Of a stretch of DNA of 64,000 nucleotides, positions 5,885-43,930 are shown in pieces. Made by a program: the position numbers and the translations under genes. Each line of letters begins with the position of its first letter. Position 1 is the first letter of the stretch. Where the stretch lies: the NCBI GenBank assembly GCA_963710105.1, contig CAVPYV010000001.1, positions 178,370 to 242,369 of the forward strand, written 5' to 3'. The notes below the pieces were generated by a model that was not told the origin of the DNA, ran no database searches, and was given only the letters and a program-made list of their open reading frames with translations. Source of the DNA: an uncultured Chloroflexia bacterium. GTDB taxonomy: Bacteria; Chloroflexota; Limnocylindria; Limnocylindrales; CSP1-4.

Positions 5885-7876
5885 TCAGGCGATCCCCACC
5901 AGCCGGGCGAGGACCGCCCCGCCGACCAGCGCGAGCCCCATCGAGGCCGCGGTCATCGCGACCGCCGACCGCCGCCCGAGCTCGGCCGCGAGGGCGGCGA
6001 ACGTGGCCACGCACGGGAACGACACCGACGTCACGATCGCGAACACGAACGCCTGGCCCGGCGTCAGGATCTGGCCGAGGACGAGGGCCCCGCCGGCCTG
6101 GGCGGCGGCCAGCACGAGCAGGAGCTGGAGCGCGAGCTCCTTGCGCAGGACCCCGAAGACGAGCGCGATCCCGGCGATCCCGGGCAGGCCCAGGGTCCAG
6201 CCGACGACGCCGTCGACGGCCGGCGCGAGCGACGTGACCACGCCGAGCTCGAAGGCGAGCCCGAGGCCCAGCGAGCCCAGCAGCATCACCGGAGCCGCGG
6301 TCCGGACGAAGCCGCGGAAGCGGAACCACGCCTTGGCGGCGACATGCCGCGGGACCGGCAGGCGGAGCGGGGCGAGGTCGAGGACGAGCGGCGACTGGCG
6401 CCCGGGCAGGATGGCGTTCGCGCCGACGGCGGCGACGACCGTGACGGCCGCGATCAGCCCGAAGGCGGCGATGGCCGGGCCCGGGCCGGCGAGGGGGACG
6501 ATCGCGGCGAGGACGATCGCGGAGCGGGCGCTGCACGGCACGAGCGTCGCCAGGAAGGCCGCGAGGACGCGTTCGCGGCGGGTCGCGAGGACCCGCGTGG
6601 CATAGATCGCCGGGACGTTGCAGCTGTTGGCCACGAGGAGCGGGATCGCCGCCCGGCCCGGCAGCCCGAAGGCGCCCAGGGCTCGGTCGGCCAGGACCGT
6701 GACCGAGGCGAGGTAGCCCGAGTCCTCGAGGGCGGCCACGATCAGGGTGAACGCCAGGACATAGGGGATGCCGACAGTCAGCATCGCCAGGACGCCGTCG
6801 TCGGCCGCCCAGAGCACGGCCCGGGCGAGCGACGCGTTCGGAAGCGCCCCGTGGACGAGCGCCTGGAGCTCGGGCGAGACCCACGTGGCCCAGCCCTGGC
6901 CGAGCAGGGCGGCTGCCACACCGCCCCCGATCGCGACGACGGCGAAGACCGCGGCGAGGACCGCCACGAGGAGCGGAATCCCGGTCGCGGGCCGGACACT
7001 GGCTGTGGCGAGCCGGTCGGCGAGGGGAACGCGGACGTCGCGATGGCGGGTCGCGGCGCCGACCCAGTCCCGGGCGGCCGCGCGGCGGTACGGCGCCAGG
7101 ACGTCGTGCATCGCGATCGACGCGGCGCCGCGCGGCGAGATCAGCCCGGCGGCGACCGCATCGGCGATCGGCGACGCGCCGACGGCCGCCGCGCCGAGCG
7201 ACGGCGAGATCCGATACGTCGTCGACGCCTCGCGTTCGAGGCTCCACTCGACCCGCGCGGGATAGAGCGGCGCGGGAACGGTCGAGCGCGGCGACTGCGT
7301 CCGATCGGCGACGCCGCGACGCCGCCGGGCCCGGGCGATCGCGTGGTCGATCGCTCGCCCGACCCCGCCGCCCTCGGCCGATGCCCCGTCCGGGTCGCGC
7401 GCGACCGTCGGGACGACGGGCATGAGGAGCCGCTGCGCGAGCAGCCCGACGTCGAGCTCGATGCCGTGCGCCGACGCCTCGTCGGTCAGGTTGGCGGCCA
7501 CGACCACCGGCAGCCCGAGATCGCGGCAGGCGAGGGCGAGGGGCAGGTGGCGGGCGAGGTCGCCGGCGTCGGCGACGACGAGGATCGCATCCGGCCGGGC
7601 TTGGAGGAGGGTCATCCAGAACGGGTCGTCGCCGGCCGGGCGGTCCACGAGCGAGCGCGTCCCCGGGAGGTCCACGAGGAGCGCCCGGCCGGATCGCCCC
7701 CGGATCTCGCGCGCCTCGGCCGCGACGGTCGTCCCCGGCAGGTTGGCCGTCTCGACGTAGCGGCCGCTCGCCCGGGCCAGAAGGGTCGACTTGCCGACGT
7801 TCGGCCGGCCGACGAGGGCGATGACCGGCAGCCGATCGTCCGGACCGGGCTGCCCGGCGGCGGCGCGTCGCCTCAT
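5885..7876 (-). CDS. feoB: Ferrous iron transporter B
   Basis: G1 GRPNVGKS, NLPGTTV, DLPG, LEDSGYL, CNVP, VPCSAR, PCVAT; overlaps feoA by 4 nt. Confidence 0.93.
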   Translation of the reverse strand: MRRRAAAGQPGPDDRLPVIALVGRPNVGKSTLLARASGRYVETANLPGTTVAAEAREIRGRSGRALLVDLPGTRSLVDRPAGDDPFWMTLLQARPDAILVVADAGDLARHLPLALACRDLGLPVVVAANLTDEASAHGIELDVGLLAQRLLMPVVPTVARDPDGASAEGGGVGRAIDHAIARARRRRGVADRTQSPRSTVPAPLYPARVEWSLEREASTTYRISPSLGAAAVGASPIADAVAAGLISPRGAASIAMHDVLAPYRRAAARDWVGAATRHRDVRVPLADRLATASVRPATGIPLLVAVLAAVFAVVAIGGGVAAALLGQGWATWVSPELQALVHGALPNASLARAVLWAADDGVLAMLTVGIPYVLAFTLIVAALEDSGYLASVTVLADRALGAFGLPGRAAIPLLVANSCNVPAIYATRVLATRRERVLAAFLATLVPCSARSAIVLAAIVPLAGPGPAIAAFGLIAAVTVVAAVGANAILPGRQSPLVLDLAPLRLPVPRHVAAKAWFRFRGFVRTAAPVMLLGSLGLGLAFELGVVTSLAPAVDGVVGWTLGLPGIAGIALVFGVLRKELALQLLLVLAAAQAGGALVLGQILTPGQAFVFAIVTSVSFPCVATFAALAAELGRRSAVAMTAASMGLALVGGAVLARLVGIA

Positions 7877-8136
7877 CGGCCGGCCTCGGCCGGCGCGTCG
7901 GCGACCGCGACGCTGATCCCGTCCGCGAGGCGCCGGGCCAGCGCGACCCGGGCCGTCCCGAGACGGACGATGAGCGGCCCGCCGAGCGGGATCCGGCGCT
8001 CGACGCTCAGCGTCGCGCCGGCGGTGATCCCGGCCTCGTCGACCCACGCGGCGACGGCCGGATCCATCGCGACCACGCGGGCCTCCACGCCCGGCTCGAG
8101 CCGGGCGAGCGAACGGGCGGCGGACCGGTCGACCAT
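7873..8136 (-). CDS. feoA: FeoA family protein
   Basis: SH3-like pattern GITAGATLSVERRIPLGGPLIVRL..VALAR; directly upstream of feoB. Confidence 0.88.
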   Translation of the reverse strand: MVDRSAARSLARLEPGVEARVVAMDPAVAAWVDEAGITAGATLSVERRIPLGGPLIVRLGTARVALARRLADGISVAVADAPAEAGR

Positions 8137-8281
8137 GACCTGATTGGACGACGGACGGACGTTCCGGCGGCAGGGCGGATCGGCCCCCTGAGCCCGGTCC
8201 GAAAGTGACCTTGTTCCCGGGACGCAAGGGCGCTTGCCGTGACCGCGCCCGGTCGGCGTTGGCCCCGGCACACCGCCAGAG

Positions 8282-8683
8282 TCAGCGGGGCTCGATCCGG
8301 AACACCGGGTGGTCGGCGGGGTCGGGCAGGGCCTCGAACGGCTCGCTCGTCCGTTCGCCCATCTGGTCGCGGAACGCGCGGACCACCCGGTCGTGCTCGC
8401 CGCCGCGGACCTCGGCCGCCTCGAACGGCTCGCCGGTCCGCCCGCGGCGGAGGACGCCCTCGCCGACCGTTCGCAGGTCGCGGACCCAGTCGGTCTCGCC
8501 GTCGGGGGAGACGAGGTAGTGGGCGCCGTCGAGCTCGATCGTCGCGACCGGCAGGTGGATCGGCCGGCCGCTCGCCTCGTCGAGGACCGTGAGCGTCGGG
8601 CCGCCGAGCCACGGCTCGGGCCGGTCGATCGGGTGCGCCGTCGGCGCCGGCCGGCGGGGTGGTGCCTCGGACAGTCTGGTCAT
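8282..8683 (-). CDS. Deazaflavin(F420)-dependent nitroreductase-like split-barrel protein
   Basis: SGRPIHLPV..YLVSPDGETDWVRDLR..HPVFRIEP pattern; ATGA overlap with the upstream gene. Confidence 0.65.
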   Translation of the reverse strand: MTRLSEAPPRRPAPTAHPIDRPEPWLGGPTLTVLDEASGRPIHLPVATIELDGAHYLVSPDGETDWVRDLRTVGEGVLRRGRTGEPFEAAEVRGGEHDRVVRAFRDQMGERTSEPFEALPDPADHPVFRIEPR

Positions 8684-9858
8684 CGGCCTGTTCCTCCGTC
8701 CGTCCGGGTTCCGCCTGCCACCGCGGGCTGGCGCTTGCCGGACGGGCTTTCTGACGTCGACGAGCTGGTGGCGGGCGCCGGCTGCCAGGCGAGCGCGCCG
8801 TGCCGGCAGCGCGTGATGCACAGGCCGCAGCGCTCGCAGCGCGCTTCGTCGATCGCGGCCAGCCCGTCGGTGACGTGGATCGCGTCGTACGGGCAGGCGA
8901 GCTCGCACAGGTCGCAGCCGTTGCAGTGCTCTGCGTCCACGAGCGGCGGAGCGGTCGCCCACGGCTCGACCAGCGGCCGCGTCGCGAGGCCGCGGATCGC
9001 CGCCGGCCCGGCGTGGCCGTGGCCGTCGAGCCAGGCGTCGAGCTCGCGGGCGATCCTGCCGAAGACGGCCGGGCCGCGGAGCATCGCCGCGGTGCACACG
9101 CCGACCGCCGAGGCGCCGGCCATGAGCATCTCGACCGCGTCGGCGCCCGACGAGATGCCGCCGACCCCGATCACCGGGATCCGGACGGCCCGGGCGATGT
9201 CGCGGACGCAGCGCACGGCGAGCGGCTTCAGGGCGGGCCCCGACAGCCAGCCCGTGCCGTCGCTGCCGCCGAGCCGGGGCCGGCCGGTCTCGATGTCGAT
9301 CGCGAGGCAGGGCCCGAACGAGTTGATCGCGACGATCGCATCCGCGCCAGCCGCCTCGGCCTGCTCCGCGGCCCGGACGAGCTCGCGGCCGAGCGGGCTG
9401 AGCTTGACGAAGACCGGGACGTCGAGGGCCGCCTTCGCCGCCCGGATCGCGGCGATCATCGGCCCGGCGTCCTCGCCGATGTAGTGGGTGGAGAGCTCGA
9501 CCGCGTCGGCGTAGGGGGCGACGAGCGGGGCGAGGCGGGCGATCTCGTCGGGGGCGTAGCCGAGGCTGACGATCAGCGGCACCTCGATCGTGCGGGCCGT
9601 CGCGTATTCGCCGCCGAGCCATGCCTCCGGCGGCAGCTCGGACCACAGCTCCGTGTTCAGCATCCCGTGCTGGATCTCGGCGATGTTCGGGGTCACCGGC
9701 CGGGCCGCCGTGACCGAGATCGTCTTGGTGACGACGCCCCCGGCGCCGCCCTCGGCGCAGCGCACGCAGGCCGCCCCGGTCCGGACCGGCGGGCCGGGCG
9801 CGGTGAGGATCGGGTTCGGGAAGTGGATCCCGCAGATCTCGACCGAGAGGTCGGCCAT
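8680..9858 (-). CDS. DHODH/PreA-like FMN oxidoreductase with C-terminal 2x[4Fe-4S] domain
   Basis: NPILTAPGP, GGVVTKT, VKLSP, GWLSGPALKP, IGVGGI; CNGCDLCELACP and CERCGLCITRC. Confidence 0.85.
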   Translation of the reverse strand: MADLSVEICGIHFPNPILTAPGPPVRTGAACVRCAEGGAGGVVTKTISVTAARPVTPNIAEIQHGMLNTELWSELPPEAWLGGEYATARTIEVPLIVSLGYAPDEIARLAPLVAPYADAVELSTHYIGEDAGPMIAAIRAAKAALDVPVFVKLSPLGRELVRAAEQAEAAGADAIVAINSFGPCLAIDIETGRPRLGGSDGTGWLSGPALKPLAVRCVRDIARAVRIPVIGVGGISSGADAVEMLMAGASAVGVCTAAMLRGPAVFGRIARELDAWLDGHGHAGPAAIRGLATRPLVEPWATAPPLVDAEHCNGCDLCELACPYDAIHVTDGLAAIDEARCERCGLCITRCRHGALAWQPAPATSSSTSESPSGKRQPAVAGGTRTDGGTGR

Positions 9859-11264
9859 CAGGCGATCCCTCCCACGGCCACTCGCCGGACGGGCGTGAAC
9901 GGATGGGGGCCGATGTCGTCCATGCGTCGCCAGAGGCCCCGCGCGGCAACGCGGGCGGCGGACGCGACCTCGGCCTCGTCGACCCGGGTCGAGCGCCGAT
10001 CGGCGATGACGAGCTCGCCGTTCACGACGACGTCGCGAACGGCCGCCGCGGACAGGCCGAAGATCCAGTGGGCGGCGAGGGTCGACCCGTCGAACAGGGT
10101 CGGCGGCGGGGCGTCGAGCACGACGAGGTCCGCCGGCGCGCCTGGCCGGAGCTCGCCGAGGAGCGGCTCCCCGAACGCCCGGGCCGGGATGGCCGCGCCG
10201 GCCGCCAGGCGCCCGACCGCCCAGTCCGGCCCCACCTCGAGGTCCTCCTCGCGGCGCCGGAGGAAGGCCGTCCGCGTCTCCTCGAACAGGTCGCCGCCGA
10301 TCCCGTCGGTCCCGAGCACGAGCCGGTCCCCGAGCGCCGCGACCGGCGCCCGGCCGACTCCGTTGTTCATGTTCGAGCGCGGGTTGTGGGCGACCGTCGC
10401 CCCGGCCACGCGGACGGCGGCGATCTCCGCCGGCCCGAGGTGGACGCCGTGAGCCAGAAGCGTCCGCTCGCCGAGGGCGCCTGCCCGGGCCAGGCGATCG
10501 ACCACCCGGAGGCCCGTCCGAGCCACCGAGTCGTCCTCGTCGGCGGCATCCTCCGCCGCGTGGATGTGGACGCCCGTCCCGGCCGACCGGGCGAGCTCGG
10601 CGAGCGCGTCGAGCGTCGCGTCGGACAGGGTGAACGAGGCGTGGCCGCCGGCCATCGCCCGGGCGAGCGGCCGGCGGCCGGCCGCGACCGCGTCGAGGAA
10701 GCGGCGGTTCTCGGCGAGACCGGCAGCGGCTCGCTCGGGGCCGTCGCGGTCGGTCGTCTCGTAGCACAGCACGGACCGAATCCCGAGCTCGGCGAACGCG
10801 TCGGCGACGATGTCGAGCGAGCCGTCGATCGCGTTCGGCGAGGCGTGATGGTCGACGAGCGTCGTCGTGCCGGCACGGAGCGCCTCGAGGCCGGCGACGA
10901 GCGCGGACGCCCGGATCGAGGCGGGATCCAGGGCGCGGTCGAGGCGCCACCAGACGCGCTGGAGGATCTCGACGAAGTCCGTCGGCGGCGCCAGGCGGTA
11001 GGGCATGCCGCGGGCGAGCGCCGAGTAGGCGTGGGTGTGGGCGCAGACGTTGCCGGGGATCACGATCGCGCCCGCGCAGTCGATCCGGCGGACGGGCCTG
11101 CGCTGCCTCCGGGCCACCGTCGCCGCCGCCCGCGCCGGTCGGCGGCCCGACGCGGACGATCCGCTCGCCGTCGACCACGACGTCGGCCGCCTCCACCCGG
11201 GTCGGCCGGGTCGCGCAGGCTCGAGCGAGCGAACGACGAGGCCGCCCGCCAGGACGAGGGTCAT
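9858..11264 (-). CDS. SsnA-like metal-dependent amidohydrolase (N-terminus has apparent compensating frameshifts)
   Basis: PGNVCAHTHAYSALARGM, WWRLDRAL, GTTTLVDHHASP, HNPRSNMNNGVG, LGTDG. Confidence 0.88.
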   Translation of the reverse strand: MTLVLAGGLVVRSLEPARPGRPGWRRPTSWSTASGSSASGRRPARAAATVARRQRRPVRRIDCAGAIVIPGNVCAHTHAYSALARGMPYRLAPPTDFVEILQRVWWRLDRALDPASIRASALVAGLEALRAGTTTLVDHHASPNAIDGSLDIVADAFAELGIRSVLCYETTDRDGPERAAAGLAENRRFLDAVAAGRRPLARAMAGGHASFTLSDATLDALAELARSAGTGVHIHAAEDAADEDDSVARTGLRVVDRLARAGALGERTLLAHGVHLGPAEIAAVRVAGATVAHNPRSNMNNGVGRAPVAALGDRLVLGTDGIGGDLFEETRTAFLRRREEDLEVGPDWAVGRLAAGAAIPARAFGEPLLGELRPGAPADLVVLDAPPPTLFDGSTLAAHWIFGLSAAAVRDVVVNGELVIADRRSTRVDEAEVASAARVAARGLWRRMDDIGPHPFTPVRRVAVGGIA

Positions 11265-13972
11265 CGCCGGCCTCCCGCGACGGGTGCGGCCGGAACGGAC
11301 GGCACCTTGCTGTCATCGGCCCGATCGGATTCGTCGTGGGCCGTCGCCCCGGCCAGGCGCGGCAGGGCCGCCCGGGCGGCGGCGGAGTCGCGCATCGGCA
11401 GCGTCGTCCGCCACCGGCCGTCGTGGGCGTGGAGCGCCGCCGCGACGGCGGCTGCCGTCGGGACGAGGACCGCCTCGCCCGCACCCTTCGCGCCGTGGGG
11501 GCCCTCGGGCTGCGGCTCCTCCACCAGGATCACCTCCACCGGCGGCATGGCGGCCGCGGGCAGGATCCCGAGCGATTTCAGGGTCGTCGTCCGGACCTCG
11601 CCGTCCTCGACCACGAGCTCCTCGGTCAGGGCATAGCCGAGCCCCATGTGGACGCCGCCCTCGACCTGGCCCTCGAGGAAGAGCGGGTTGATCGCCCGGC
11701 CGACGTCCTGGGCGGCGATGACGCGCTCCAGCCGGCCGGCCTCGTCGAGCACGACGACCTGGGTCGCCCAGCCGTAGGCCATGTGGGTCACGGGCTCGGC
11801 GACGTCGCTGTCCGGCGCGGTCGTCCAGTCGACGACGTGCTCGCCGGCGATCTCGCGGCCGGCGAGCGCCGCGAGGGGCCGGCCGGCCAGCTCCGTCCGG
11901 AGGCGGCGGGCGGCGTCGAGCACGGCCTGGCCGCCGAGCGTCGTCGCCCGCGACGCGGTCGTCTCGCCGGTGTCGAGCTCGCGCTCGGTGTCGACCCGGA
12001 CGTCGATCCGGTCGACCGCGATCCCGAGCTCGGTCGCGGCGATCTGGGCGAGGGCAGTGTGGATGCCCTGGCCCATCTCGGTCCAGGAGTGGTACAGGGT
12101 GAGCGTGCCGTCGGCCTCGGGCCGGAGGATCGCCCGCCCGCGCTCGACCATCCCGTTGCCGATCCCGGTGTTCTTCGCGCCGCAGGCGATCCCGGCGATC
12201 GGCGCGGCCCGATACGCGTCGCGGACGGCGAGGAGCGTCGCCTTGAGCCCGACCCCCGGCCCCAGCCGCTGGCCGGTCGTGAACTGGTCGCCGACGTCGA
12301 GGGCGTTCCGCCAGCGGATCTCCCAGCCGTCGATCCCGACGCGCTCGGCGAGCCGGTCGAGCAGGCCGTCGATCGCGAACGTCACCTGCGGCACGCCGAA
12401 GCCGCGCATCGCCCCGGCGGGCGGGTTGTTCGTGTGGACGGCGCGGGCCTCGATGTCGACCGCCGGCACGCGGTACGCGCCGCAGGCATGCCCCGCCGCG
12501 CGCTCCAGGACCTTGGCCCCGACGCTGGCGTAGGCGCCGGTGTCGCCGACGATCCGGGCCCGGACCGCGAGCAGCCGGCCCTCGTCGTCGCAGCCTGCCG
12601 TATAGGTCATCACGAGCGGGTGGCGCTTCGGGTGGGAGCGGAGGCTCTCGCGGCGGGACAGGGCGAGGAGGACGGGCCGGCCGGTCAGCCAGGCGAGGAG
12701 CGCAGCAGGGCCCTGGACCGTGAGGTCCTCCTTGCCGCCGAACGCCCCGCCGGTCGCGACCTGGGTGACCCGGACGGCGCCCTCCGGCAGGCCGAGGAGC
12801 GAGGCGATCTGGCGGCGGTCCTCCCAGGCGCCCTGGCCCTGGGAGTGGACCCGCAGGCCGTCGCCCTCGGGACGGGCGAGGCAGGCCTCCGGCTCGAGGA
12901 AGGCGTGCTCGATCCGTTGGGTCCGGAACGTCTCGGTCACGACGTGGGCGGCGAACGCCAGCGCACCGTCGACGTCGCCGCGCCGGATCGTCGTCGTCGA
13001 CAGGAGGTTGCCCCGCGGCTGGACCGGCGGGGCGTGCGGGCGGAGCGCCGCGATCGGATCGGTGACCGGCTCGCGAACCTGGTACTCGACTTCGACGAGG
13101 GCCGCCGCCGCGCGGGCCGCGGCCCGGCTCGTCGCGGCGACCGCCGCGAGCACGTCGCCGACGCAGCGCGTCTCCTCGCCCTCGGCCACGAGGACCGGCC
13201 AGTCGCGCTCGATCAGGCCCTGGACCCGCTCGCCCGGGACGTCGGCGGCGGTGACGATCCGGACGACGCCCGGCTGGGCCGCCGCGCGCGTCACGTCGAT
13301 CCGGGTGACGAGGGCGCGGGGGTGGTCGGAGAAGCGGAGGGCGCCGTGGAGGAGGCCCGGCTCCAGGAGGTCGGCGACGAAGGCCCGCTCGCCGAGGGCG
13401 AGGCCGCGGGCATCGAGCCGCGGCCGGCGGGCGCCGACGCCGTCGGAGGGCGACGACGCCGCGGTACCCGGCGGTCCGGTCACGGCGGCGGACGCCGGAC
13501 GGCCCGCCTCGGAGGCGCCGCGGCGGCCGGCGGCCACCAGCTCGATCGCGTCGATCACCTTGACGTAGCCGGTGCAGCGGCAGAGGTTGCCGGCGAGAGC
13601 CCGGGCAATCTCGGCCCGCGAGGGGTCGGGGCTGCGGCGGAGGAGGCCCTCGGCCTTCATCACGATCCCGGGCGTGCAGAAGCCGCACTGCGATCCGCCG
13701 GTCTCGGCGAGGGCGTCGGCCCAGGCCGTTCGGCTCCCGGGATCGAGTCCCTCGACCGTCTCGACCCGGCGGCCGGCGACGCGCTCGGCGGGCTGGGCGC
13801 AGGAGACCGCGGGCCGGCCGTCGACGATCACCGTGCAGGCGCCGCACGAGCCCTCGGGAGCGCAGCCGTCCTTCATCGAGCGCAGGCCGAGCCCGTCGCG
13901 GAGGACGTCGAGCACGCTCGCGCCCGGGCGCGCGTCCACCGTCACCGGCCGTCCATTGAGCACGAACTGCAT
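11261..13972 (-). CDS. Molybdenum hydroxylase with fused 2x[2Fe-2S] and Moco domains (selenium-dependent xanthine dehydrogenase-like)
   Basis: [48 protein letters not shown]. Confidence 0.9.
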
Positions 13973-14147
13973 TGGTCGTCCTTCCCGTCGCGGCGGGCCG
14001 TCTGGCCCTGTCCCGGGCCCCGACGCACCTCCGACTCTAGGGAGGGCCATGGTCGCGGACCCGTGCTGTAGGTCCCGACCTCGGCCCTCACGTTGTCCCG
14101 ATTCCGGCATGACCAGGCCGGCCCGGGACCCCACAGCGGAGGCAGTG

Positions 14148-15646
<1,499 letters not shown>

Positions 15647-15650
<4 letters not shown>

Positions 15651-17191
15651 CCCGGATCGCCGCCGTCGCCGAGCGCCCGTTCCCGCCGGATGGCCGATCG
15701 GTCGCGCCGCCCCGTGACCTCGCGACCGGATGGCGGTGCAGCGGCTGCGCCTTCACCGTCGAGCCCGGAGCACCGGTCCCGATGCGCTGCCCGGCGGCCG
15801 TCGCCGGCGACGACGTGGACCACGTCCTCGTTCGGACCCTGGTCGCGCGGGGGCTCGACCCGGCGGATGCGGGCGAGGCGAACCCGTTCGTCCGCTTCCG
15901 GCGCCGCTTCCACGCCTGGCACGCGACGCAGGCCCTGGGCTGGACCGACGCCGACTACGTGAGCCTCGTCGAGGGCCTCGACGCGGCGATCAGCCACGTC
16001 GACGGCCACGGCTTCGCGACGACGCCGCTGACCGACTCCGCCGAGCTCGACGCCGCGCTCGAGATGGACCCGGGCCGGGTCCTCGTGAAGGACGAGACCG
16101 GCAACGTCGGCGGTTCCCACAAGGCTCGCCACCTGGCCGGCACGATTCTCGAGCTCGAGGCGAACGACGCGCTCGCGCGGGCGTCGGCCGCGGCCGCCGG
16201 ACGGCGCGAGCCCGATCACCCGCCGGCCCGCCTCGCGATCTCGAGCTGCGGCAACGCCGCCCTGGCCGCCGCGGTCGTCGCCCGGGCATGGGGCCGCGAG
16301 CTCGACGTCTTCATCCCGACCGACGCCGACCCGGCGGTCGTCGCCCGCCTCCGCGAGCTCGACGCCCGGGTCACCGTCGCCGAACGCGACCCGGACCTGC
16401 CCGGCGACCCGGCCTACCGCCTGCTCGCCGCAGCCGCTGCCGAGGGCGCGCTCCCGTTCACCTGTCAGGGCAACGAGAACGGCTTCGCGATCGAGGGCGG
16501 GTTGACGCTGGCCTTCGAGCTCGCAGGCCAGCTCGCCGCCACCGGAACCGTGCTCGACCACCTCGTCATCCAGGTCGGGGGCGGGGCGCTCGCCTCGTCC
16601 TGCATCCAGGGCCTGCGCGAGGCGGTCGCCCTCGGCGAGCTCGACCGGATGCCCCGGATCCACACCGTCCAGACGCGCGGCGCGTGGCCCCTCGGCCGGG
16701 CCTGGGACCTCGCCGCCGCCCGGCTCCTCGGGCACGAGCCCGACGGCCGCCACCGCCTCCCGCCGCGCTCCAACGCGACCGCCGACGAGCTGGCGCTCCG
16801 CGCCCTGACCGCCGACGGCGCGGCGATCCTCGACGACCTGCCGCGCCACCGCTCGGCGTGGATGTGGCCGTGGGAGACCGCGCCGCACAGCGTCGCCCAC
16901 GGGATCCTCGACGACGAGACCTACGACTGGTACGCCGTCGTGCGGGGCATGGTCGAGACGGGCGGCCAGCCCGTCGTGGTCGACGAGGCAACGCTCACGG
17001 CCGCCAACCGGCTCGCCCTGCGGGCGACCGGAATCGACGTCGACCACACCGGGTCCGCGGGACTCGCCGGGCTCCTCGACCTTCGCCGCCGCGGCGAGAT
17101 CGCGGCCGGCGAGACCGTGGCCGTCCTGTTCACCGGCGTCCGCCGGACCCATCCCGCCGGCTCGACCGGACATCCTGGAGATCGATCATGA
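15647..17191 (+). CDS. Fold-type II PLP-dependent enzyme (threonine synthase-like)
   Basis: N-terminal Cxx[37 protein letters not shown]. Confidence 0.82.
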
Positions 17192-18144
17192 GGAGCTTCC
17201 TGGGCCGGGACATCCTGACCCTCAAGGATTTCAGCCGCGAGGACTTCTTCCGCGTCTTCGAGGTCGCCAACGACCTCCGGCCGTACGCCCGCGACCGGCG
17301 CAACGGCGACCTCCTGAAGCACAAGACGCTGCTGACGGCCTTCTACCAGCCGAGCACGCGGACCCGCCTCTCGACCGAGGCCGCGATGCACCGCCTGGGC
17401 GGCGCGGTCCTCGGCTTCTCCGACGCGAAGATGACGCGAGCCGGCGACTTCTACCAGGAGTCGCTCAAGGACACGTTCCGGATGCTCGAGTCGTACGGCG
17501 ACGTGATCGCGATCCGCCACTTCCAGGAAGGCGCCCCGGCCGAGGCGGCCCACTGGTCGTCGGTCCCGGTGATCAACTGCGGCGACGGCTGGGGCCAGCA
17601 CCCCACCCAGGTCCTGACCGACCTCTACACGATCCTCCTCGAGAAGGGCACCCTCGACGGGCTGACCTACCTCCTCGTCGGCGACATGCGGATGCGGACG
17701 ATGCACTCGATCCTCCATGCCCTGTCGCAGTTCGACGCCGAGGCGATCGTCGTCTCGCCGCCCGATCTCGCCCTGAAGCCGGAGTTCAAGGCCGAGCTCG
17801 ACGCGATGAGCGTCGCCTACCGCGAGGCCGAGTCGGTCGCCGACGTCATCGGCGAGGCCGACGTCATCTACATGGAGCCGGTCGTCCAGGCCGACTACAC
17901 CCAGGCGCGCGTCGAGCGGGCCGGCGGCGAGGTCGGGTTCACGCCGGACGCGTACCGGGTCACCGCCGAGCTGATGCGCCAGAAGGCCAAGCGCAGCTCG
18001 ATCATCCTCCACTCGCTGCCGCGGATGGACGAGCTGACCGCCGACGTCGACGAGACCCGCCACCAGCGCTACTGGGTCGAGGCCGCCAACGGCGTCGTCC
18101 TCCGGATGGCCCTGCTCGCCCTGGTCCTCGGCGCGGCCGAGTAG
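17188..18144 (+). CDS. ATCase-like carbamoyltransferase with non-canonical acceptor site
   Basis: FYQPSTRTRLS, IRH, NCGDG..HPTQ, HSLPR. Confidence 0.85.
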   Translation: MRSFLGRDILTLKDFSREDFFRVFEVANDLRPYARDRRNGDLLKHKTLLTAFYQPSTRTRLSTEAAMHRLGGAVLGFSDAKMTRAGDFYQESLKDTFRMLESYGDVIAIRHFQEGAPAEAAHWSSVPVINCGDGWGQHPTQVLTDLYTILLEKGTLDGLTYLLVGDMRMRTMHSILHALSQFDAEAIVVSPPDLALKPEFKAELDAMSVAYREAESVADVIGEADVIYMEPVVQADYTQARVERAGGEVGFTPDAYRVTAELMRQKAKRSSIILHSLPRMDELTADVDETRHQRYWVEAANGVVLRMALLALVLGAAE

Positions 18145-18156
18145 GGGAGCACGACG

Positions 18157-19134
18157 ATGCAGACGAACCTTCGCGGCCGCGACCTGATCAGCCTCCAGGA
18201 CTGGACGAAGGAGGAGATCGACACGATCTTCGAGGTGGCGGCCCGGCTCAAGCTCGACCGCGCCCTCGGGGTCCCGCACCCGCTCCTCCGCGACAGGGTC
18301 CTCGCGATGCTCTTCTTCTTCTCGAGCACCCGGACCCGCGCGTCGTTCGAGGCGGGCATCGCCCAGCTCGGCGGCCACGGCCAGTTCATCGAGGCGAAGA
18401 CGACCCAGATCGCCCACGGCGACACCGCCAAGGAGATCGGCGAGATCCTCGGCCGCTACAACGACGGGATCGCGATCCGCAACGTCGACTGGGGCGTCGG
18501 GAACGCGTACATGCAGGACGTCGCGGCCGCCTCGCGCGTCCCCGTCCTGAACATGCAGTGCGACCTCTACCACCCGTTCCAGGTCCTCGCCGACCTGCTG
18601 ACGATCAAGGAGAAGCTCGGCGACCCGCGCGGCCGGACGCTGACCGTGTCGTGGGCCTACGCCGAGAGCTACCAGAAGCCGATGAGCGTGCCGCAGGACC
18701 TGATCCAGCTCGCGACCCGCTTCGGGATGAACGTCCGGCTCGTCCACCCGCCGGAGTACCGGCTGATGCCCGGGATCGTCGAGCAGGCCAACCGCAACGC
18801 CCGGGCGTCGGGCGGCTCGCTGGAGCTGATGGACGACTTCGACGCCGGGATGACCGGCAGCGACGTCGTCTACGCCAAGAGCTGGGGCCCGCTCCTGACG
18901 GCCACGAACGACGAGGAAGGCGCCGCCATCGGCGCCCGCTACACCGACTGGATCGCCGACGAGCGGCGGATCGGGCTGGCCAACGCCGACGCGATCTACA
19001 TGCACCCGCTTCCCGCCGACCGCAACGTCGAGGTCGCCGACGCGGTCATCGACGGCCCCCACTCCGTCGTCTACGACGAGGCGGAGAACCGGCTCCACGT
19101 CCAGAAGGCCGTCATGGCCCTGACGATGGCCTGA
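18157..19134 (+). CDS. YgeW/AOTCase-like (knotted) carbamoyltransferase
   Basis: SSTRTRASFE, HPFQ, SWAYAESYQKPMSVPQ (YgeW-like loop), YAKSWG, MHPLPADR, EAENRLH. Confidence 0.85.
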   Translation: MQTNLRGRDLISLQDWTKEEIDTIFEVAARLKLDRALGVPHPLLRDRVLAMLFFFSSTRTRASFEAGIAQLGGHGQFIEAKTTQIAHGDTAKEIGEILGRYNDGIAIRNVDWGVGNAYMQDVAAASRVPVLNMQCDLYHPFQVLADLLTIKEKLGDPRGRTLTVSWAYAESYQKPMSVPQDLIQLATRFGMNVRLVHPPEYRLMPGIVEQANRNARASGGSLELMDDFDAGMTGSDVVYAKSWGPLLTATNDEEGAAIGARYTDWIADERRIGLANADAIYMHPLPADRNVEVADAVIDGPHSVVYDEAENRLHVQKAVMALTMA

Positions 19135-19151
19135 TGAAGAAGGAGACCGAC

Positions 19152-20099
19152 ATGGGCGATCGGACGCTGGTCGTCGCGATCGGCGGCAACTCGCTGATCA
19201 AGGATTCCAAGCACCAGAGCATCCCGGACCAGATCGCGGCGCTCCACGAGACGAGCACCCACATCGCCGCGATCATCCAGGCCGGCTGGAAGGTCGCGAT
19301 CGGCCACGGCAACGGGCCGCAGGTCGGGTTCATCCTGCGCCGCTCGGAGCTGGCCGCCCACGAGCTCCACGAGGTGCCCCTCGACGTCTGCAACGCGGAC
19401 AGCCAGGGCGCCATCGGCTACGAGCTCCAGCAGGTCCTCGGCAACGACCTCGGCCGGCTCGGGATCCCGCTCCAGGCAGTCACGGTCGTCACCCAGGTCG
19501 AGGTCGCCGCGGACGACCCGGCGTTCGGCCGGCCATCGAAGCCGATCGGGACGTTCATGGACGAGGAGCGCGCCACCCGTCGCCGCGAGGAGGACGGCTG
19601 GGACGTGGTCGAGGACGCCGGGCGCGGCTGGCGCCGGGTCGTCGCGTCGCCGCGGCCGATCCGGATCGTCGAGGAGCGCGCCGTCAAGTCGCTCATCGAC
19701 GCCGGCTTCGTCGTGATCACCGTCGGCGGTGGCGGGATCCCGGTGGTCGCGGACGCCGCCGGCTGCCTCCAGGGCGTGGCCGCGGTGATCGACAAGGACT
19801 ATGCCTCGTCGCTCCTCGCCCGCCAGATCGGCGCGAACGTCTTCGCGATCACGACCGCGGTCGAGCGGGTCGCCCTGAACTGGGGCCGGCCCGACCAGGA
19901 GTGGATCGACCGGATGACCGCCGCCCAGGCCCGCGCCTGGCTCGACGAGGGCGGCCACTTCATGGCCGGCAGCATGGCCCCGAAGATCGAGGCCTGCCTC
20001 GAGTTCCTCGCCGCCGGCGGCGAGGAGGCGATCATCACCCGGCCGGAGCTGCTCGAGGAGGCCGTCGCCGGGACCGCCGGGACCCACATCGTCGCCTGA
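19152..20099 (+). CDS. arcC: Carbamate kinase
   Basis: VAIGGNSL, HGNGPQVG, SQGAIGY, WRRVVASPRP, GGGGIPV, VIDKD, GSMAPK; AAGGAG RBS. Confidence 0.95.
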   Translation: MGDRTLVVAIGGNSLIKDSKHQSIPDQIAALHETSTHIAAIIQAGWKVAIGHGNGPQVGFILRRSELAAHELHEVPLDVCNADSQGAIGYELQQVLGNDLGRLGIPLQAVTVVTQVEVAADDPAFGRPSKPIGTFMDEERATRRREEDGWDVVEDAGRGWRRVVASPRPIRIVEERAVKSLIDAGFVVITVGGGGIPVVADAAGCLQGVAAVIDKDYASSLLARQIGANVFAITTAVERVALNWGRPDQEWIDRMTAAQARAWLDEGGHFMAGSMAPKIEACLEFLAAGGEEAIITRPELLEEAVAGTAGTHIVA

Positions 20100-26420: not shown

Positions 26421-28746
<2,326 letters not shown>

Positions 28747-28750
<4 letters not shown>

Positions 28751-30165
28751 CCGTCGTCGCGGGTTCGCCGGTCGGGGCGGTCGTCGCCGACCTCGAGATC
28801 TCGCGGGCGTGGCTGGTCGATCCTGCGAGCGGCCGCGAGGGCCCGGGCGAGATCGTCGTGACGGACGGGGTCCTCGAGGCGCTGACGTGGCTGGAGGGAT
28901 CGGAGGCGGACGGCATCGACGACCACGGGGTCGTCGTCGCGCCCGGCTTCGTCGACCTCCACGCCCACCTCCGCGAGCCCGGGAACGAGGATGCCGAGAC
29001 GGTCGCGAGCGGGCTGGCGGCGGCGGCCCACGGCGGGTTCACGACGGTCTGCCTGATGCCGGACACGACGCCCGCCCTCGACGACCCGGCCGTCCTCGCC
29101 CGGATCCGGGCCGCGGCGGACGCCTCGGGCTCGCCCGTCCGGGCCCTGGCCTGGGGGGCGGTCACCGCGGGCCGCGCCGGCGAGACGCTGGCGGCGCTCG
29201 GGGAGCTCGCGGACGCCGGGGTGGCGGGGTTCACGGACGACGGGTCGAGCCTGCGCAGCGCGACGCTCCTCCGCCACGCCCTCGCCTACGCCGGTGCCCT
29301 CGGGCTGCCGGTCGTCGATCACGCCGAGGACGTCACCCAGACGGCGGGCGCCGAGGCGAACGACGGGTTCGTCGCCACGGTCCTCGGGCTCCGTGGCTGG
29401 CCGGCCGCGGCCGAGGAGACCGCCGTCGCGCGCGATCTCGCGATCCTCGCCGAGGTCGTGCGGGACGTGCCTGCCACGCGGCTCCACCTGACCCACCTCT
29501 CGACGGCCGGCGCGCTCGAGCTCGTCCGGCGGGCGAAGGCCGCAGGGCTGCCGGTCAGCTGCGACGTGACGCCGCATCATCTCGCCCTCACCGACGAGTG
29601 GCTCGCCGGCGCCCGCCGCTGGGCCTGGGACGCGACCGGCGACCCGTGGGGCGACGGGACGGGCGCGATCGTCGCCGCGCCGTACGCGTCCTCGCTCCGG
29701 GTCGATCCGCCGCTGCGCTCCGCCGCGGACGCGGCCGCGTGCCGGGAGGCGCTGCTCGACGGGACGGTCGACGCGATCGCCACCGACCACGCGCCGCAGG
29801 CCAGCGTCGACAAGGACGTCGAGTTCGGCCTGGCCGCGCCCGGGATCAGCGGGCTCGAGACGGCACTCGGCGTTGTGCTCGCCGCCGTCGACGCCGGGCT
29901 GCTGCCGCTCGCCCGCGCGCTGTCTCTGCTCACGACCGGTCCCGCCCGCGTTCTGGGCGCGGCCGGGGATCGGGGGGCGGGTCCGGGTCTGATCGAGGGG
30001 GCGCCGGCCGACCTGGTTGTGTTCGACCACTCGGCGACCTGGACCGTCGAACCCGATGCGCTCCGATCGCGCGGCAAGAGCACGCCACTGACCGGCCGCG
30101 AGCTGCCCGGCCGGGTGCTGTTCACCCTGGCCGGCGGTCGCCTCGCCTACGAAGCCGCGGACTGA
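28747..30165 (+). CDS. pyrC: Dihydroorotase
   Basis: DLHAHLREPG, HAED, VTPHHL, PPLR, ATDHAP; follows pyrB. Confidence 0.9.
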
Positions 30166-36273: not shown

Positions 36274-36899
36274 GCTGCGGTCTCCTCGATCGTCGTCGTG
36301 GGCGGCCGTCGGCCGGTGCCACGCAGGTTGTAGAGGACGGCGATGACGCCGCACGCTCCCGCCAGCAGGCCGGACAGGTAGCAGAGGGGGAGGGCGAGAT
36401 CAGGGTTCTTCGAGCTGACGAGCAGCGGCATGAGGACGTCGACCCGCTGCCCGGTGAGCTCCGTCATCTGGGTTCCGAGGAAATACGGAACGATGTAGAG
36501 GGCGGCGCCCAGGCCGATGAGGATCACCTGCCAGCGGTAGCCGTTCACGTCCCGGTCGCCCGCCGTGGTCAGCTTGATCAGCAGGGCCGCGAATGCGCAC
36601 ACGGCCGCGAGGCCGCCGGTGATCGGGAGGTCCTGGCCGGCGACGACGTCCGGGTAGAAGAAGATGAAGCTGCCGAGCAGGACCTGGACGAGGATGATGT
36701 CGCGCAGCCCGACGTAGATGATCCACCACAGGTCGGCGCCCAGCCGCAGGCTGAACTTGCCCGTGTTGCGGACCATGTACGGCCGGCCGAGGTGGAGCGC
36801 GACGGCGAGCATCCAGAGCACGACGAGCGCCGCCGCGATCGTCCCTTCGACGAAGTTCTCGCCCGCGTCGAAGAAGCCGGATACCTGGTCGGGAGTCAT
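36270..36899 (-). CDS. Uncharacterised polytopic membrane protein (paralog A)
   Basis: 5-6 hydrophobic segments; LHLGRPY..LRLGADLWW..Y...RD, LPIT; AGGAGG RBS and ATGA overlaps. Confidence 0.8.
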   Translation of the reverse strand: MTPDQVSGFFDAGENFVEGTIAAALVVLWMLAVALHLGRPYMVRNTGKFSLRLGADLWWIIYVGLRDIILVQVLLGSFIFFYPDVVAGQDLPITGGLAAVCAFAALLIKLTTAGDRDVNGYRWQVILIGLGAALYIVPYFLGTQMTELTGQRVDVLMPLLVSSKNPDLALPLCYLSGLLAGACGVIAVLYNLRGTGRRPPTTTIEETAA

Positions 36900-38920
36900 G
36901 CCATACCTCCTGTCGCTGTCGGGTGCTGCTCGTCGCCACGGGTCGGTCGGGAGACGGCGTCGCTCGCCGGTTGATCCTTCGGCGCGCGGTCGTCCGGCTC
37001 GCGGTCGTCCGGTCCGCGGCCGCCGATCACGTGGACGACGGTGCAGCCTTCGACCGCGTCGCAGCGGAAGCAGCGAGCTGCCTCGGCCCGGGCCATGGCC
37101 GGCTCGAACCCGCCCTGGGTCGGCGCGAACGATCGAGAGTCGACGATCGGCAACGCCGGGTGCAGGCGAGGGCGTCGCTCGAGATCGAGGTCGAGCTGGT
37201 GCTCGACCGCCGTCGCGTAGCGGACCGTTCGCAGGATCGCGGCCTCCCCATCGGGGACGCGGGCGAGGTATTCGTGGATGGAGCCGGCGGCCCGACGCCC
37301 GGCGGCAACCGCGTCGATGATGGTCTTCGGTCCGGACACGACGTCGCCGCCGGCGAAGATGCCGGCCCGCCCGGTGGCCATCGTCCGCGTGTCGGCGACG
37401 ACGCCCGCCCAGGCGCTGACCTCGATGCCGGTCCCCTCGGGCAGGATCGACGGATCGGGCTCCTCGCCGATCGCCACGAGGATCGTCCGTGCGGCCAGGT
37501 CCACCTGATCGGGTGCCGCGGACGCTGCCACGTCGGAGTCCGCGGTCGCCGACGAGGGGTCGCCGCTCGCGGGCCTCGCGGTCCGGCAGCGGAGTGCGAC
37601 GGCGGCTCCGTCGCGACTGACGACCTCGACGACCGTGAGCCCGGTCCGGATCACGACCCCCTCGCGCTCGGCCGCCTCGATCTCCTCGGCCTGGGCCGGC
37701 ATGTCCGATCGGGCGCGCCGATAGGCGATGGTCACCGATCCGGCTCCCGATCGGAGCGCGGACCGAGCCGCGTCCATCGCCGTGCTGCCGCCGCCGACGA
37801 CAACGACGTCCCCGCTCAGGGCCGGCGCCTCGCCGAGGTTCACGCGCTTCAGGAAGAGGGTCGCGGGGACGACCCCGGCGAGATCGTCGCCGGGGACGCC
37901 GAGGCGCCGGCTCTTGGAGGCTCCCGTCGCGAGGAACACCGCCCGGAAGCCCTGCCGCTCCAGGTCGCCGAGGGTGAAGTCGCGGCCCATGACCGCGTTC
38001 AGCCGGAGCTCCACCCCGAGCCCCACGATCCTGGCGATCTCCGCCTGGAGGACCTCTCGCGGCAGACGGTAGGCGGGGATCCCGATCGCCATCATTCCGC
38101 CCGGGACCGGCATCGCCTCGAAGACCGTCACCGGATAGCCGAGGCGCGCGAGGTACCACGCCGCCGACATGCCGGCCGGACCGCCGCCGACGATCGCGAT
38201 CTTCTCTGGTCGACGCGTCGCGGGCGGCGCGACGGCGGGGAGGGAGCCATGCTCCGCCGCGAACCGCTTGATCGTGCGGATCGAGATCGGCTCGTCGAGC
38301 ACGCCGCGACGGCAGGCGGCCTCGCACGGCGCCGTGCAGATCCAGCCGCAGACCGACGGGAACGGGTTGACTTCGGCGGCCACGGCTGAGGCGTCGTCAT
38401 AGCGGCCCTGGGCAACGAGCCCCACATAGCGGCCGGCGTCCGTCCCCGCCGGGCATGCCGCCTGGCATGGTGCCTGGTGCGCCGTGTCACTTCTCGGCCG
38501 GGTGGCGGCCGGCCAGCCAAGCGGACGACGGCCGGGACGCTCCACGCGGTCGCTCCAGGCCGCCGGATGTGCGGGCTTGAGGGATTCGAGCGTGATCGCC
38601 GACAACGGCGCCCAGGTTTCGCCCGGAGCGTGTGGTCGGTGAATGGGTCCCTGACGCGGCGCGAGGTCCGTCGGGCCCGGCTGGGTCGCCAGGGTCATCA
38701 CGGTGACCGGGCATTGCTCGACGCAGATCGAGCACCCGATGCACTCGCCGACCTGGACCGGGTGCTCCATCGTCCAGGGAAGGGCTCGGGCGAAGCCCAG
38801 GCCCGCCTCGATCCCGGGTCGCGCCGGCCGGCTCATGTCGAGCGCCTCGACCGGGCAGACGTCCATGCAGATGCCGCAGTTGATGCAGCCGCCGTGATCG
38901 ATGTCGATCCGATAGCCCAT
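36896..38920 (-). CDS. Fe-S flavoprotein: N-terminal 2x[4Fe-4S] ferredoxin plus GltD/PreT/SudA-like NAD(P)H oxidoreductase
   Basis: CINCGICMDVCP, CIGCSICVEQCP, APCQAACP, CGWICTAPCEAAC, GGGPAG, GGGSTAMD, YRR, RCFRC. Confidence 0.9.
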   Translation of the reverse strand: MGYRIDIDHGGCINCGICMDVCPVEALDMSRPARPGIEAGLGFARALPWTMEHPVQVGECIGCSICVEQCPVTVMTLATQPGPTDLAPRQGPIHRPHAPGETWAPLSAITLESLKPAHPAAWSDRVERPGRRPLGWPAATRPRSDTAHQAPCQAACPAGTDAGRYVGLVAQGRYDDASAVAAEVNPFPSVCGWICTAPCEAACRRGVLDEPISIRTIKRFAAEHGSLPAVAPPATRRPEKIAIVGGGPAGMSAAWYLARLGYPVTVFEAMPVPGGMMAIGIPAYRLPREVLQAEIARIVGLGVELRLNAVMGRDFTLGDLERQGFRAVFLATGASKSRRLGVPGDDLAGVVPATLFLKRVNLGEAPALSGDVVVVGGGSTAMDAARSALRSGAGSVTIAYRRARSDMPAQAEEIEAAEREGVVIRTGLTVVEVVSRDGAAVALRCRTARPASGDPSSATADSDVAASAAPDQVDLAARTILVAIGEEPDPSILPEGTGIEVSAWAGVVADTRTMATGRAGIFAGGDVVSGPKTIIDAVAAGRRAAGSIHEYLARVPDGEAAILRTVRYATAVEHQLDLDLERRPRLHPALPIVDSRSFAPTQGGFEPAMARAEAARCFRCDAVEGCTVVHVIGGRGPDDREPDDRAPKDQPASDAVSRPTRGDEQHPTATGGMA

Positions 38921-39052
38921 GGCCCGCCTCCGTCCGTCGTGCTCGGCACCGCGAGCATCGGACGGGCGGCCAGCGGGCGCCACCCTCGTCGGGAGCGGCC
39001 GGCCCCCATCCCTTCGGGCTGGGAGCGGCGGGCCGTTCGGCACGGCCGTCGA

Positions 39053-43067: not shown

Positions 43068-43930
43068 CGCTGCCCCTGGTCCGAGCCGGGCTGGTCGACA
43101 GCCGCGAGATCCTCCCGGGCCAGTGGCTGCTCTCGCTCCGCGCGCCGGAGATCGCGAACGCGTCGCGGGCCGGCCAGTTCCTCCACGTCCGGACGGCGGA
43201 CGCCTCGGGCCTCGTGCTCCGACGACCGTTCCCGATCCGGACCGCGGATCCCGGGAGCGGTCTCGTCACGATCCAGTGCCGATCGGCGGACCGCGGGTCC
43301 GACTGGTTCGTCCGCCTCAGGCCGGGAGACGCGGTCGAGCTCGCCGGGCCGCTCGGCCGGCCGTTCGAGGTCGACCCGCGCTCGCGCCACCTCCTGCTGA
43401 TCGCGGGCGGCGTCGGGATCGCGGCCGTCCGCGCCCTCGCCGACGAGGCGATCCGTGACGGACGCCAGGTCACCCTCCTGTTCGGTGCCGGGTCGGCCCG
43501 CGAGGTTCATCCGTCGTCGCTCCTGCCCGACGAGGTCGAGTACGTGATCGCGACCGCCGACGGCTCCGTCGGGCAGCGCGGCGCGGTCACGGACCTCGTC
43601 CCCGCCTACGAGGCGTGGGCCGATCAGGCGTTCGCGGCCGGCCCTCGCCCGATGCTGGCGACGCTCGCCCATCTGGCCGCCGGGCGGCGGGGGCGGCTCG
43701 GCGTGGCGACGCTCGGTCGGAAGCGCGGCGGCGGGCGGGTCGACCCGCCCGGGTCGCCGGCGGCCCGCCGCAAGGTCTTCCTCCAGGTCGTCATCGACCA
43801 CTCGATCGGTTGCGCGGCGGCGACCTGCCTCGGCTGTGTCGTGCTCGGTGCCGGCGGCCAGCCGCAGCGCGCCTGTCGCGAGGGGCCGGTCTTTGCCGCC
43901 GACGAGATCGCCTGGGAGTCGCCCTGGTGA
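43064..43930 (+). CDS. pyrK: Dihydroorotate dehydrogenase electron-transfer subunit
   Basis: AGQF, LRRPF, GPLGRPF, AGGVG, CAAATCLGC..ACREGPVF. Confidence 0.85.
   Translation: MTLPLVRAGLVDSREILPGQWLLSLRAPEIANASRAGQFLHVRTADASGLVLRRPFPIRTADPGSGLVTIQCRSADRGSDWFVRLRPGDAVELAGPLGRPFEVDPRSRHLLLIAGGVGIAAVRALADEAIRDGRQVTLLFGAGSAREVHPSSLLPDEVEYVIATADGSVGQRGAVTDLVPAYEAWADQAFAAGPRPMLATLAHLAAGRRGRLGVATLGRKRGGGRVDPPGSPAARRKVFLQVVIDHSIGCAAATCLGCVVLGAGGQPQRACREGPVFAADEIAWESPW

Follow-up and report, generated by a model that had tools for sequence, protein, structure and literature searches.

Organization of the divergent cluster

The stretch analysed here, referred to as the window, comprises 64,000 nucleotides of contig CAVPYV010000001.1 from an uncultured Chloroflexia bacterium (GCA_963710105.1), whose genome assembly spans 3.47 Mb in three contigs and is rated 82% complete. 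Positions 8282-20099 of the window hold nine genes in two divergent arms, which, judged from the families of their products, very probably form a urate/purine catabolic cluster of the reductive pathway. Because the G+C content of the window is about 74%, genes were called from codon-position G+C (third-position frame analysis) together with start-codon context. The leftward arm encodes a molybdenum (Mo) hydroxylase without a flavin adenine dinucleotide (FAD) domain, an SsnA-type amidohydrolase, a reductase of the PydA/UacX type and a small protein with weak similarity to FDORs, and the rightward arm encodes two enzymes of the pyridoxal phosphate (PLP)-dependent type (PLP1 and PLP2), a paralogue of aspartate carbamoyltransferase (ATCase), termed ATC-like below, a short YgeW-like carbamoyltransferase and a carbamate kinase. 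Of the seven junctions between same-strand neighbours, six are overlaps of 1-4 nucleotides, and the seventh is a 12-nucleotide gap between the ATC-like and YgeW-like genes. Frame analysis and start inspection thus confirmed the divergent, mostly overlapping operons with named enzymes that an initial annotation of this DNA had described. For a survey of linkage in other genomes, the window proteins and an E. coli protein set were mapped by tblastn onto the 80 best PLP1 loci, PLP1 being present in at least 599 species genomes in a scan of one genome per species; of the 80 loci, 44 extend the full 10 kb to either side, and some absences thus reflect truncated contigs.

The Mo enzyme (903 residues; 11261-13972, minus strand) is a fused 2Fe-2S/molybdopterin hydroxylase with the Pfam domains Fer2, Fer2_2, Ald_Xan_dh_C and MoCoBD_1/2 and no FAD domain. 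It exceeds the cut-off of TIGR03311, "selenium-dependent xanthine dehydrogenase" (929.2 bits against 830.45), is linked with SsnA in 21 of the 80 PLP1 loci, and is proposed to interconvert urate and 2,8-dioxopurine. The amidohydrolase (468 residues; 9858-11264, minus strand) has SsnA as its best family (NF005540, 421.7 bits against a cut-off of 444; TIGR03314, 402.9 against 455.5), shares 42% identity with E. coli SsnA over 391 residues, and is proposed to open the purine ring once it has been reduced.

The reductase (392 residues; 8680-9858, minus strand) combines an FMN-type DHO_dh barrel (PF01180, E-value 2.2e-37) with Fer4 and two 4Fe-4S motifs, and domain searches found no FAD/NAD(P)H domain in it. 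Its best-scoring models are those of dihydroorotate dehydrogenase (186.5 bits), and it reaches 163.3 bits against a cut-off of 335 for PreA (NF006183). Orthologues with 67-74% identity occupy the same position in five other loci (L012, L013, L014, L019 and L024). The architecture matches that described for UacX (PF01180 and Fe-S, no FAD domain), and the protein is proposed to reduce the 2,8-dioxopurine ring. Elsewhere in the window, 17 kb from the cluster, a gene at 36896-39043 (minus strand) encodes a 715-residue Fe-S flavoprotein of the GltD/YgfT/AegA type (NF009410, 445 bits against a cut-off of 516), which resembles the NAD(P)H-binding half absent from UacX.

The last gene of the leftward arm (8282-8683, minus strand), which shares its first four nucleotides with the end of the reductase gene, encodes a 133-residue protein that matched no Pfam family and hit TIGR00026, the deazaflavin-dependent nitroreductase family, at an E-value of 5.9e-4. 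The label "F420-type barrel" given to it in the initial annotation comes down to this single match, which lies below threshold (20.5 bits against 46.35). No homologue was detected in any of the 80 loci at E<0.1 or in the cluster of the same-genus genome G053, and the source genome holds two paralogues. The protein is therefore lineage-specific, and its candidacy as a conserved part of the pathway was rejected. A CofD match in the source genome (316.8 bits) indicates that the organism may make F420.

The arms are separated by an intergenic region (13973-14147), in which an alignment revealed blocks conserved in six related clusters, including the invariant runs TGGCCCT, TAG and TCCCG, the block GGCCGTCTGGCCCT, and two TTGGTCCCGA-like words about 21 nucleotides apart. 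A riboswitch was considered for this region and rejected, since an Rfam search returned no family (best E-value 3.4, below the gathering score) and none of eight predicted pairs showed covariation in the alignment. For the same reasons, the blocks are probably promoter and operator DNA.

Carbamoyltransferases and PLP enzymes of the rightward arm

The ATC-like protein (318 residues; 17188-18144, plus strand) has the OTCace domains and is named "aspartate carbamoyltransferase" throughout the public records of its family. However, a canonical pyrR-pyrB-pyrC operon lies about 7 kb away (26955-30165; pyrB at 27713-28750, with PyrB model NF002032 at 371.7 bits against a cut-off of 263), and pyrK-pyrD are located at 43064-45087, so the ATC-like gene represents an extra copy rather than the pyrimidine-biosynthetic one. 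In a quick maximum-likelihood tree of carbamoyltransferases, from which one mis-called fusion of 836 residues (row L019_12682_15192) was left out, the ATC-like proteins make up a separate clade of 13 rows (SH-aLRT support 97), which is nested within the ATCases next to the PyrB proteins of E. coli and of the window. They resemble PyrB in fold and length and keep the carbamoyl-phosphate motifs; STRTR, R105, HPTQ and R167 are all retained. In contrast, in all six ATC-like rows compared with E. coli PyrB, the K84 region is changed from "GK-KGE" to "GDFYQE", and the R229/Q231 region from "TRVQKER" to "EPVVQADYT..R.ER", with an acidic insertion of eight residues, whereas the PyrB of the window keeps both regions as in E. 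coli. K84 and R229 are the residues that we take to hold the beta-carboxylate of aspartate in E. coli PyrB. The changes at these positions and the new acidic residues would fit a substrate whose side chain is neutral or cationic, for example 2-ureido-3-aminopropionate or diureidopropionate. The ATCase naming of the family is probably a systematic misannotation, and the ATC-like enzyme is proposed to act as a phosphorolytic decarbamoylase in place of the hydrolase YgeY.

The YgeW-like protein (325 residues; 18157-19134, plus strand), also with OTCace domains, shares 34% identity with E. coli YgeW and contains the YgeW blocks NxQCDxxHPxQ, SWAYxxSYxKPxSVPQ and KSW. It lacks the insertions and the C-terminal tail of YgeW, being about 70 residues shorter, and falls in a clade of 10 short YgeW-like rows (support 98) apart from canonical YgeW in the same tree. 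The adjoining carbamate kinase (321 residues; 19134-20099, plus strand) scores 393.6 bits against the NF009007 cut-off of 266 and is 47% identical to E. coli YqeA.

PLP1 (500 residues; 14148-15650, plus strand) is a fold-type-II protein with a core like that of O-acetylserine sulfhydrylase and with N- and C-terminal extensions (PALP, 3.4e-10; cysK TIGR01139, 77.7 bits against a cut-off of 350.95). Its predicted structure has a pLDDT (predicted local distance difference test) of 85.9, and the best Foldseek matches are cysteine synthases (E-values of about 1e-13; TM-scores on the target of 0.78-0.83). K112 is invariant in all 13 alignment rows and is the probable Schiff-base lysine. PLP2 (514 residues; 15647-17191, plus strand) matches PALP at 5e-37, ThrC NF006050 at 73.6 bits (cut-off 303) and DpaL NF006058 at 20.6 bits (cut-off 276). 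An N-terminal Cys3-His motif (C31, C34, C48 and H59) and K159, the candidate Schiff-base lysine, are invariant in all 13 rows. Foldseek searches with the PLP2 model (pLDDT 83.5) placed ThrC first and DpaL 41st, with serine racemases and threonine deaminases among the best matches, assigning PLP2, on predicted fold and sequence, to the fold-type-II enzymes of the threonine-synthase/dehydratase/racemase type. Sequence and fold searches of the PDB pointed to cysteine synthases for PLP1 and to threonine synthases, racemases and dehydratases for PLP2, without giving a substrate for either, and the ESM Atlas matches of both were unnamed PALP clusters only.

Relatives of PLP1 are very numerous and highly conserved: every one of the 8000 scored candidates matched at E<=1e-10, and identity is 66-96% in the top 120 clusters. 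PLP2 lies behind PLP1 in 56 of the 80 loci, and the PLP1 stop overlaps the PLP2 start in many of them. The "two PLP elimination steps" put forward in the initial annotation found no support. The PLP1-PLP2 pair is conserved, and it also turns up apart from purine genes. PLP1 without PLP2 was found in Alphaproteobacteria beside DpaL-like enzymes. In the Xanthobacter-type loci L088 and L051, it lies between F420 biosynthesis genes and a block encoding a CoA-transferase, a luciferase-like (LLM) protein, an M20 peptidase and a DpaL-like protein; in the marine alphaproteobacterial loci L059 and L073, PLP1 follows an amino-acid ATP-binding cassette (ABC) transporter and precedes an enzyme of the dimethyl sulfoxide (DMSO) reductase family. 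These Xanthobacter-type and marine loci may represent other pathways using the same enzyme.

Distribution of the cluster and the missing canonical genes

Across the 80 PLP1 loci, SsnA or the Mo enzyme is encoded in 28, of which 25 also carry PLP2. The ATC-like gene is present in 14 loci, in which it is accompanied by SsnA or the Mo enzyme in 14 of 14, by the YgeW-like gene in 11 and by ygeY in none, and it occupies the position held by ygeY in other variants. Conversely, ygeW and ygeY occur in the same five loci, never alongside the ATC-like gene. An orthologue of ygeX was found in one locus and HyuA in seven. The full set of the window recurs in four loci (L013, L014, L019 and L024), and all of it except UacX in nine. 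The ring reductase varies, being UacX in six loci and YgfK in two, and in six Actinomycetota-type loci (L016, L018, L023, L027, L039 and L050) a luciferase-like F420-type (LLM) gene lies directly behind SsnA. Three further loci (L029, L042 and L053) carry a nitrilase-family hydrolase gene behind PLP2. This linkage pattern indicates a constant core of Mo enzyme, SsnA, PLP1 and PLP2, with interchangeable reductases and decarbamoylating enzymes. The survey supports the initial annotation in that the locus is a variant purine cluster, here a recurrent ygeW/ssnA/xdhD-type variant. A lack of co-occurrence of the arms elsewhere, which that annotation had named as refuting, was not borne out, both arms being found together in other genomes.

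Few members of the genus carry the cluster: a PLP1 orthologue was found in one of 24 other genomes and an ATC-like orthologue in one of 42 (genomes 58 to 93% complete, including the unpublished G010, which gave no orthologue). The only same-genus cluster found, in G053 (L098/L099, G053:C252), matches that of the window in its right arm and Mo enzyme. It differs in an SsnA that is 41% identical, a full-length YgfK and an adjoining permease of the xanthine/urate type (NCS2). The SsnA-plus-reductase module seems to have been swapped as a unit (compare L015).

Domain, family and E. coli-protein searches confirmed that, as the initial annotation had stated, the locus lacks an Xdh FAD subunit, ygeY, hyuA, DpaL and full-length ygfK. 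In the 82% complete source genome, searches with E. coli queries and curated families gave at best 69.6 bits for DpaL (cut-off 276) and 87 bits for YgeY (cut-off 321.5), and only GltD-like parts were matched by full-length YgfK. The absences of ygeY and DpaL hold genome-wide, whereas those of the FAD subunit and full-length YgfK correspond to variation already published for Clostridioides difficile (PMC12507026). The absence of hyuA applies to the window only, in which domain and E. coli-protein searches found none: a HyuA-type dihydropyrimidinase gene is located at C1:419188-420577, 230 kb from the cluster, and its product shares 39-48% identity with E. coli HyuA and 46-54% with a HyuA encoded beside PLP1 in another genome. 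TIGR02033 exceeds its cut-off in five of five other genomes with the same cluster, always outside the cluster, versus one of 14 control genomes.

The HyuA-type gene is interrupted by a one-base frameshift in the assembly. The selD gene (C1:2587063-2587984) is likewise split by a single frameshift, located in a G-run, and soil-metagenome contigs of relatives (90-99% likeness) lack one base at L092:9759 (two contigs in run X1 and one in X3, all from one study); run X7 has a depth of 2.22 at this site and no contig with the deletion, and run X2 has no cover there. A pseudogene was accordingly not accepted, and the split selD and the contigs of the relatives make an assembly error the probable cause. 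Both frameshifts, together with a completeness of 82% in only three contigs, point to indel errors in the assembly. Regarding selenium, to which the initial annotation had looked through selD and yqeBC, SelD is present and adjoins SelA, and searches of the source genome detected neither YqeB nor YqeC; the trait of a selenium-dependent Mo hydroxylase (SelD, YqeB and YqeC) is thus represented by SelD alone. Among five related genomes, SelD occurs in all and YqeC in none. In addition, uricase, OHCU decarboxylase and a hydantoinase/allantoinase-like amidohydrolase are encoded together at positions 4866-10883 of L093 (G000:C1:2016000-2035999), and the source genome seems to have an oxidative urate route as well.

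A putative reductive urate route with two phosphorolytic steps

The reductive urate pathway of gut bacteria was worked out in two studies of 2025 (Li et al., PMC12507026; Liu et al., bioRxiv 10.1101/2025.04.24.650524). According to these papers, urate is converted to 2,8-dioxopurine by XdhD-YgfM or DOPDH, the ring is reduced by YgfK and opened by SsnA, and the hydantoin is opened by HyuA; one ureido group is then phosphorolysed by YgeW (with YqeA for ATP), the other is hydrolysed by YgeY, and YgeX, a diaminopropionate ammonia-lyase, completes the route. A commentary (PMC12990295) describes the order of ureido cleavage as not settled; in the order proposed by Liu et al., YgeW-type enzymes remove the 3-ureido group before the other one. 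Li et al. also describe a C. difficile variant, with an FAD-less XdhD, a PydA-like UacX (PF01180) replacing YgfK and a D-aminoacylase-like UacY, and a Chloroflexota variant, with a luciferase-like F420 reductase (PF00296) near SsnA.

The family matches of the Mo enzyme, SsnA, the DHO_dh/Fe-S reductase, the YgeW relative and the carbamate kinase map onto these published steps, and we place the probability that the cluster specifies a soil-type version of the reductive urate (2,8-dioxopurine, "yanthine") pathway, in the full sequence proposed here, at roughly 0.7. Every step is drawn from homology and gene linkage. The FAD-less 2Fe-2S/Mo enzyme would convert urate to 2,8-dioxopurine, which the UacX-type FMN/Fe-S reductase would dearomatise, with or without participation of the FDOR-like protein. 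SsnA would hydrolyse the reduced ring to ureidomethyl-hydantoin, and the unlinked HyuA-type hydantoinase would open the second ring to give 2,3-diureidopropionate. The YgeW-like enzyme and the ATCase paralogue, the latter replacing YgeY, would each move one carbamoyl group to phosphate, and the carbamate kinase could form up to two ATP from as many carbamoyl phosphates, a yield per urate that is plausible from the gene content. Finally, PLP1 and PLP2 would replace YgeX and release pyruvate and ammonia from the C3 amino acid. Two parts of this scheme are less certain than the whole: whether both ureido groups are phosphorolysed is evenly balanced on present evidence, and the PLP pair has about an even chance of performing the YgeX job.

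Compared with known systems, the cluster shares with that of E. coli (xdhD-ygfM, ygfK, ssnA, hyuA, ygeW, yqeA, ygeY and ygeX) a linked Mo hydroxylase, a flavin/Fe-S ring reductase, SsnA, a YgeW relative and a carbamate kinase. However, it has no YgfM FAD subunit, carries UacX instead of YgfK and a TIGR03311 rather than a TIGR03313 Mo enzyme, lacks hyuA, ygeY and ygeX in the locus, and contains a shorter YgeW relative together with the added ATCase paralogue and PLP1-PLP2 pair. The FAD-less Mo enzyme and the PF01180 reductase without an FAD domain, for which ferredoxin or a similar donor is presumed, are already published for the C. difficile type, in which a ureido group is removed hydrolytically by UacY and neither YgeW nor carbamate kinase is present, in contrast to the two carbamoyltransferases and carbamate kinase found here (PMC12507026). 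The Chloroflexota/F420 variant occurs in the same environmental lineages but has the LLM enzyme where this cluster has UacX. The passages of that paper available make no distinction between ATC-like and YgeW proteins or between PLP1/PLP2 and YgeX, and its gene neighbourhoods are coloured by PF00185 and PF00291, which would merge ATC-like with YgeW and PLP1 and PLP2 with YgeX. A full-text literature search, the figures and supplements of Li et al. aside, found no published description of the double carbamoyltransferase or of the PLP1-PLP2 pair. The arginine deiminase pathway (catabolic ornithine carbamoyltransferase and carbamate kinase) similarly couples ureido phosphorolysis to carbamoyl phosphate with substrate-level ATP formation, whereas the substrates here would be C3 ureido acids, acted on by two transferases of different subfamilies in series.

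Several observations weigh against the proposed route. The Mo enzyme lies outside the XdhD family (TIGR03313, 254.5 bits against a cut-off of 1101.9) and, in the alignment, lacks the XdhD-specific insertion holding E606, so its regiochemistry is not readable from sequence. The SsnA-type protein stays under its curated cut-offs, as does the YgeW-like protein under every one (YgeW model, 194.9 bits against 453), whereas the ATC-like protein passes the curated ATCase threshold (TIGR00670, 260.1 bits against 236.95). The HyuA-type gene is unlinked and frameshifted, and YqeB and YqeC, which Liu et al. (10.1101/2025.04.24.650524) report from all gut strains carrying the pathway, were not found. The PLP pair is not purine-specific, 52 of the 80 PLP1 loci having neither SsnA nor the Mo enzyme in the flank and 31 of these 52 having PLP2; in L025, moreover, the pair occurs together with ygeX. 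The YgeW-like gene is missing from three of the 14 ATC-like loci, indicating that a single phosphorolysis may suffice, and the truncated contigs add to the uncertainty of such absences.

Three other explanations were considered. In one, which we consider unlikely, the pathway is unchanged except that a single ureido group per molecule undergoes phosphorolysis, while the CysK-like PLP1 acts on albizziin (3-ureidoalanine) and releases the second group as urea in a beta-elimination, so that the two carbamoyltransferases serve alternative substrates or isomers and ATP is not doubled. The O-acetylserine-sulfhydrylase-type core of PLP1 suits this chemistry, as that family works via aminoacrylate on beta-substituted alanines, and the three loci without the YgeW-like gene, the single nitrilase-family hydrolase behind the PLP pair in L029, L042 and L053, and the thermodynamically unfavourable phosphorolysis by YgeW, reported in PMC12507026, also point in this direction. 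However, both carbamoyltransferases occur together in 11 of the 14 ATC-like loci, their genes are only 12 nucleotides apart here, and no urease or urea-handling gene was found in the locus. A somewhat less probable view regards the right arm as a self-standing module for ureido- or diamino-acids, parked beside a purine hydroxylase/SsnA module and acting on substrates wider than, or other than, urate intermediates. The wide occurrence of PLP1, its many loci away from purine genes, and its alphaproteobacterial settings with amino-acid ABC transporters, a DMSO-reductase-family enzyme, DpaL-like PALP enzymes or F420 biosynthesis genes speak for such a module, whereas the invariable company of SsnA or the Mo enzyme with the ATC-like gene (14 of 14), the divergent arrangement and the intergenic blocks conserved in six other clusters speak against it.

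The least probable explanation, and a very improbable one, is a reductive orotate/pyrimidine route, in which a DHO_dh-type reductase would form dihydroorotate or a dihydropyrimidine, the amidohydrolase would open the ring, and a true ATCase, running in reverse on carbamoyl-aspartate, would feed the carbamate kinase. It would account for the reductase scoring best on dihydroorotate dehydrogenase models and for the ATCase cut-off being passed. However, the binding positions for the aspartate beta-carboxylate are changed in the ATC-like protein, the amidohydrolase is SsnA-like rather than dihydroorotase-like, a xanthine-dehydrogenase-type Mo hydroxylase is always linked, and the same-genus cluster adjoins a urate/xanthine-type permease.

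If the reductive urate route holds, the upper pathway, described only in 2025 and only for gut anaerobes, would also operate in Chloroflexota and Actinomycetota of soil and in lineages that usually count as aerobes, with a lower half that appears rebuilt for energy saving, yielding two carbamoyl phosphates rather than one. The altered side-chain pocket of the ATC-like enzyme would provide a handle on which ureido group YgeW removes first. The PLP1 family, large and highly conserved, has no assigned function. We tentatively suggest, as a doubtful but possible extension, that the PLP pair is an undescribed two-protein system, spread over at least 599 species, that finishes C3 diamino and ureido acids and in soil bacteria replaces YgeX and part of the hydrolytic chemistry, the ATCase paralogue being a new carbamoyltransferase for N-alpha-carbamoyl-2,3-diaminopropionate. 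Such an enzyme would argue that YgeW-type enzymes act first on the 3-ureido group, as Liu et al. proposed, and soil bacteria would then obtain two ATP from each urate without oxygen.

Directly downstream of the leftward arm, on the same strand, the window encodes a ferrous iron transporter (feoB-feoA, 5885-8271, minus strand).

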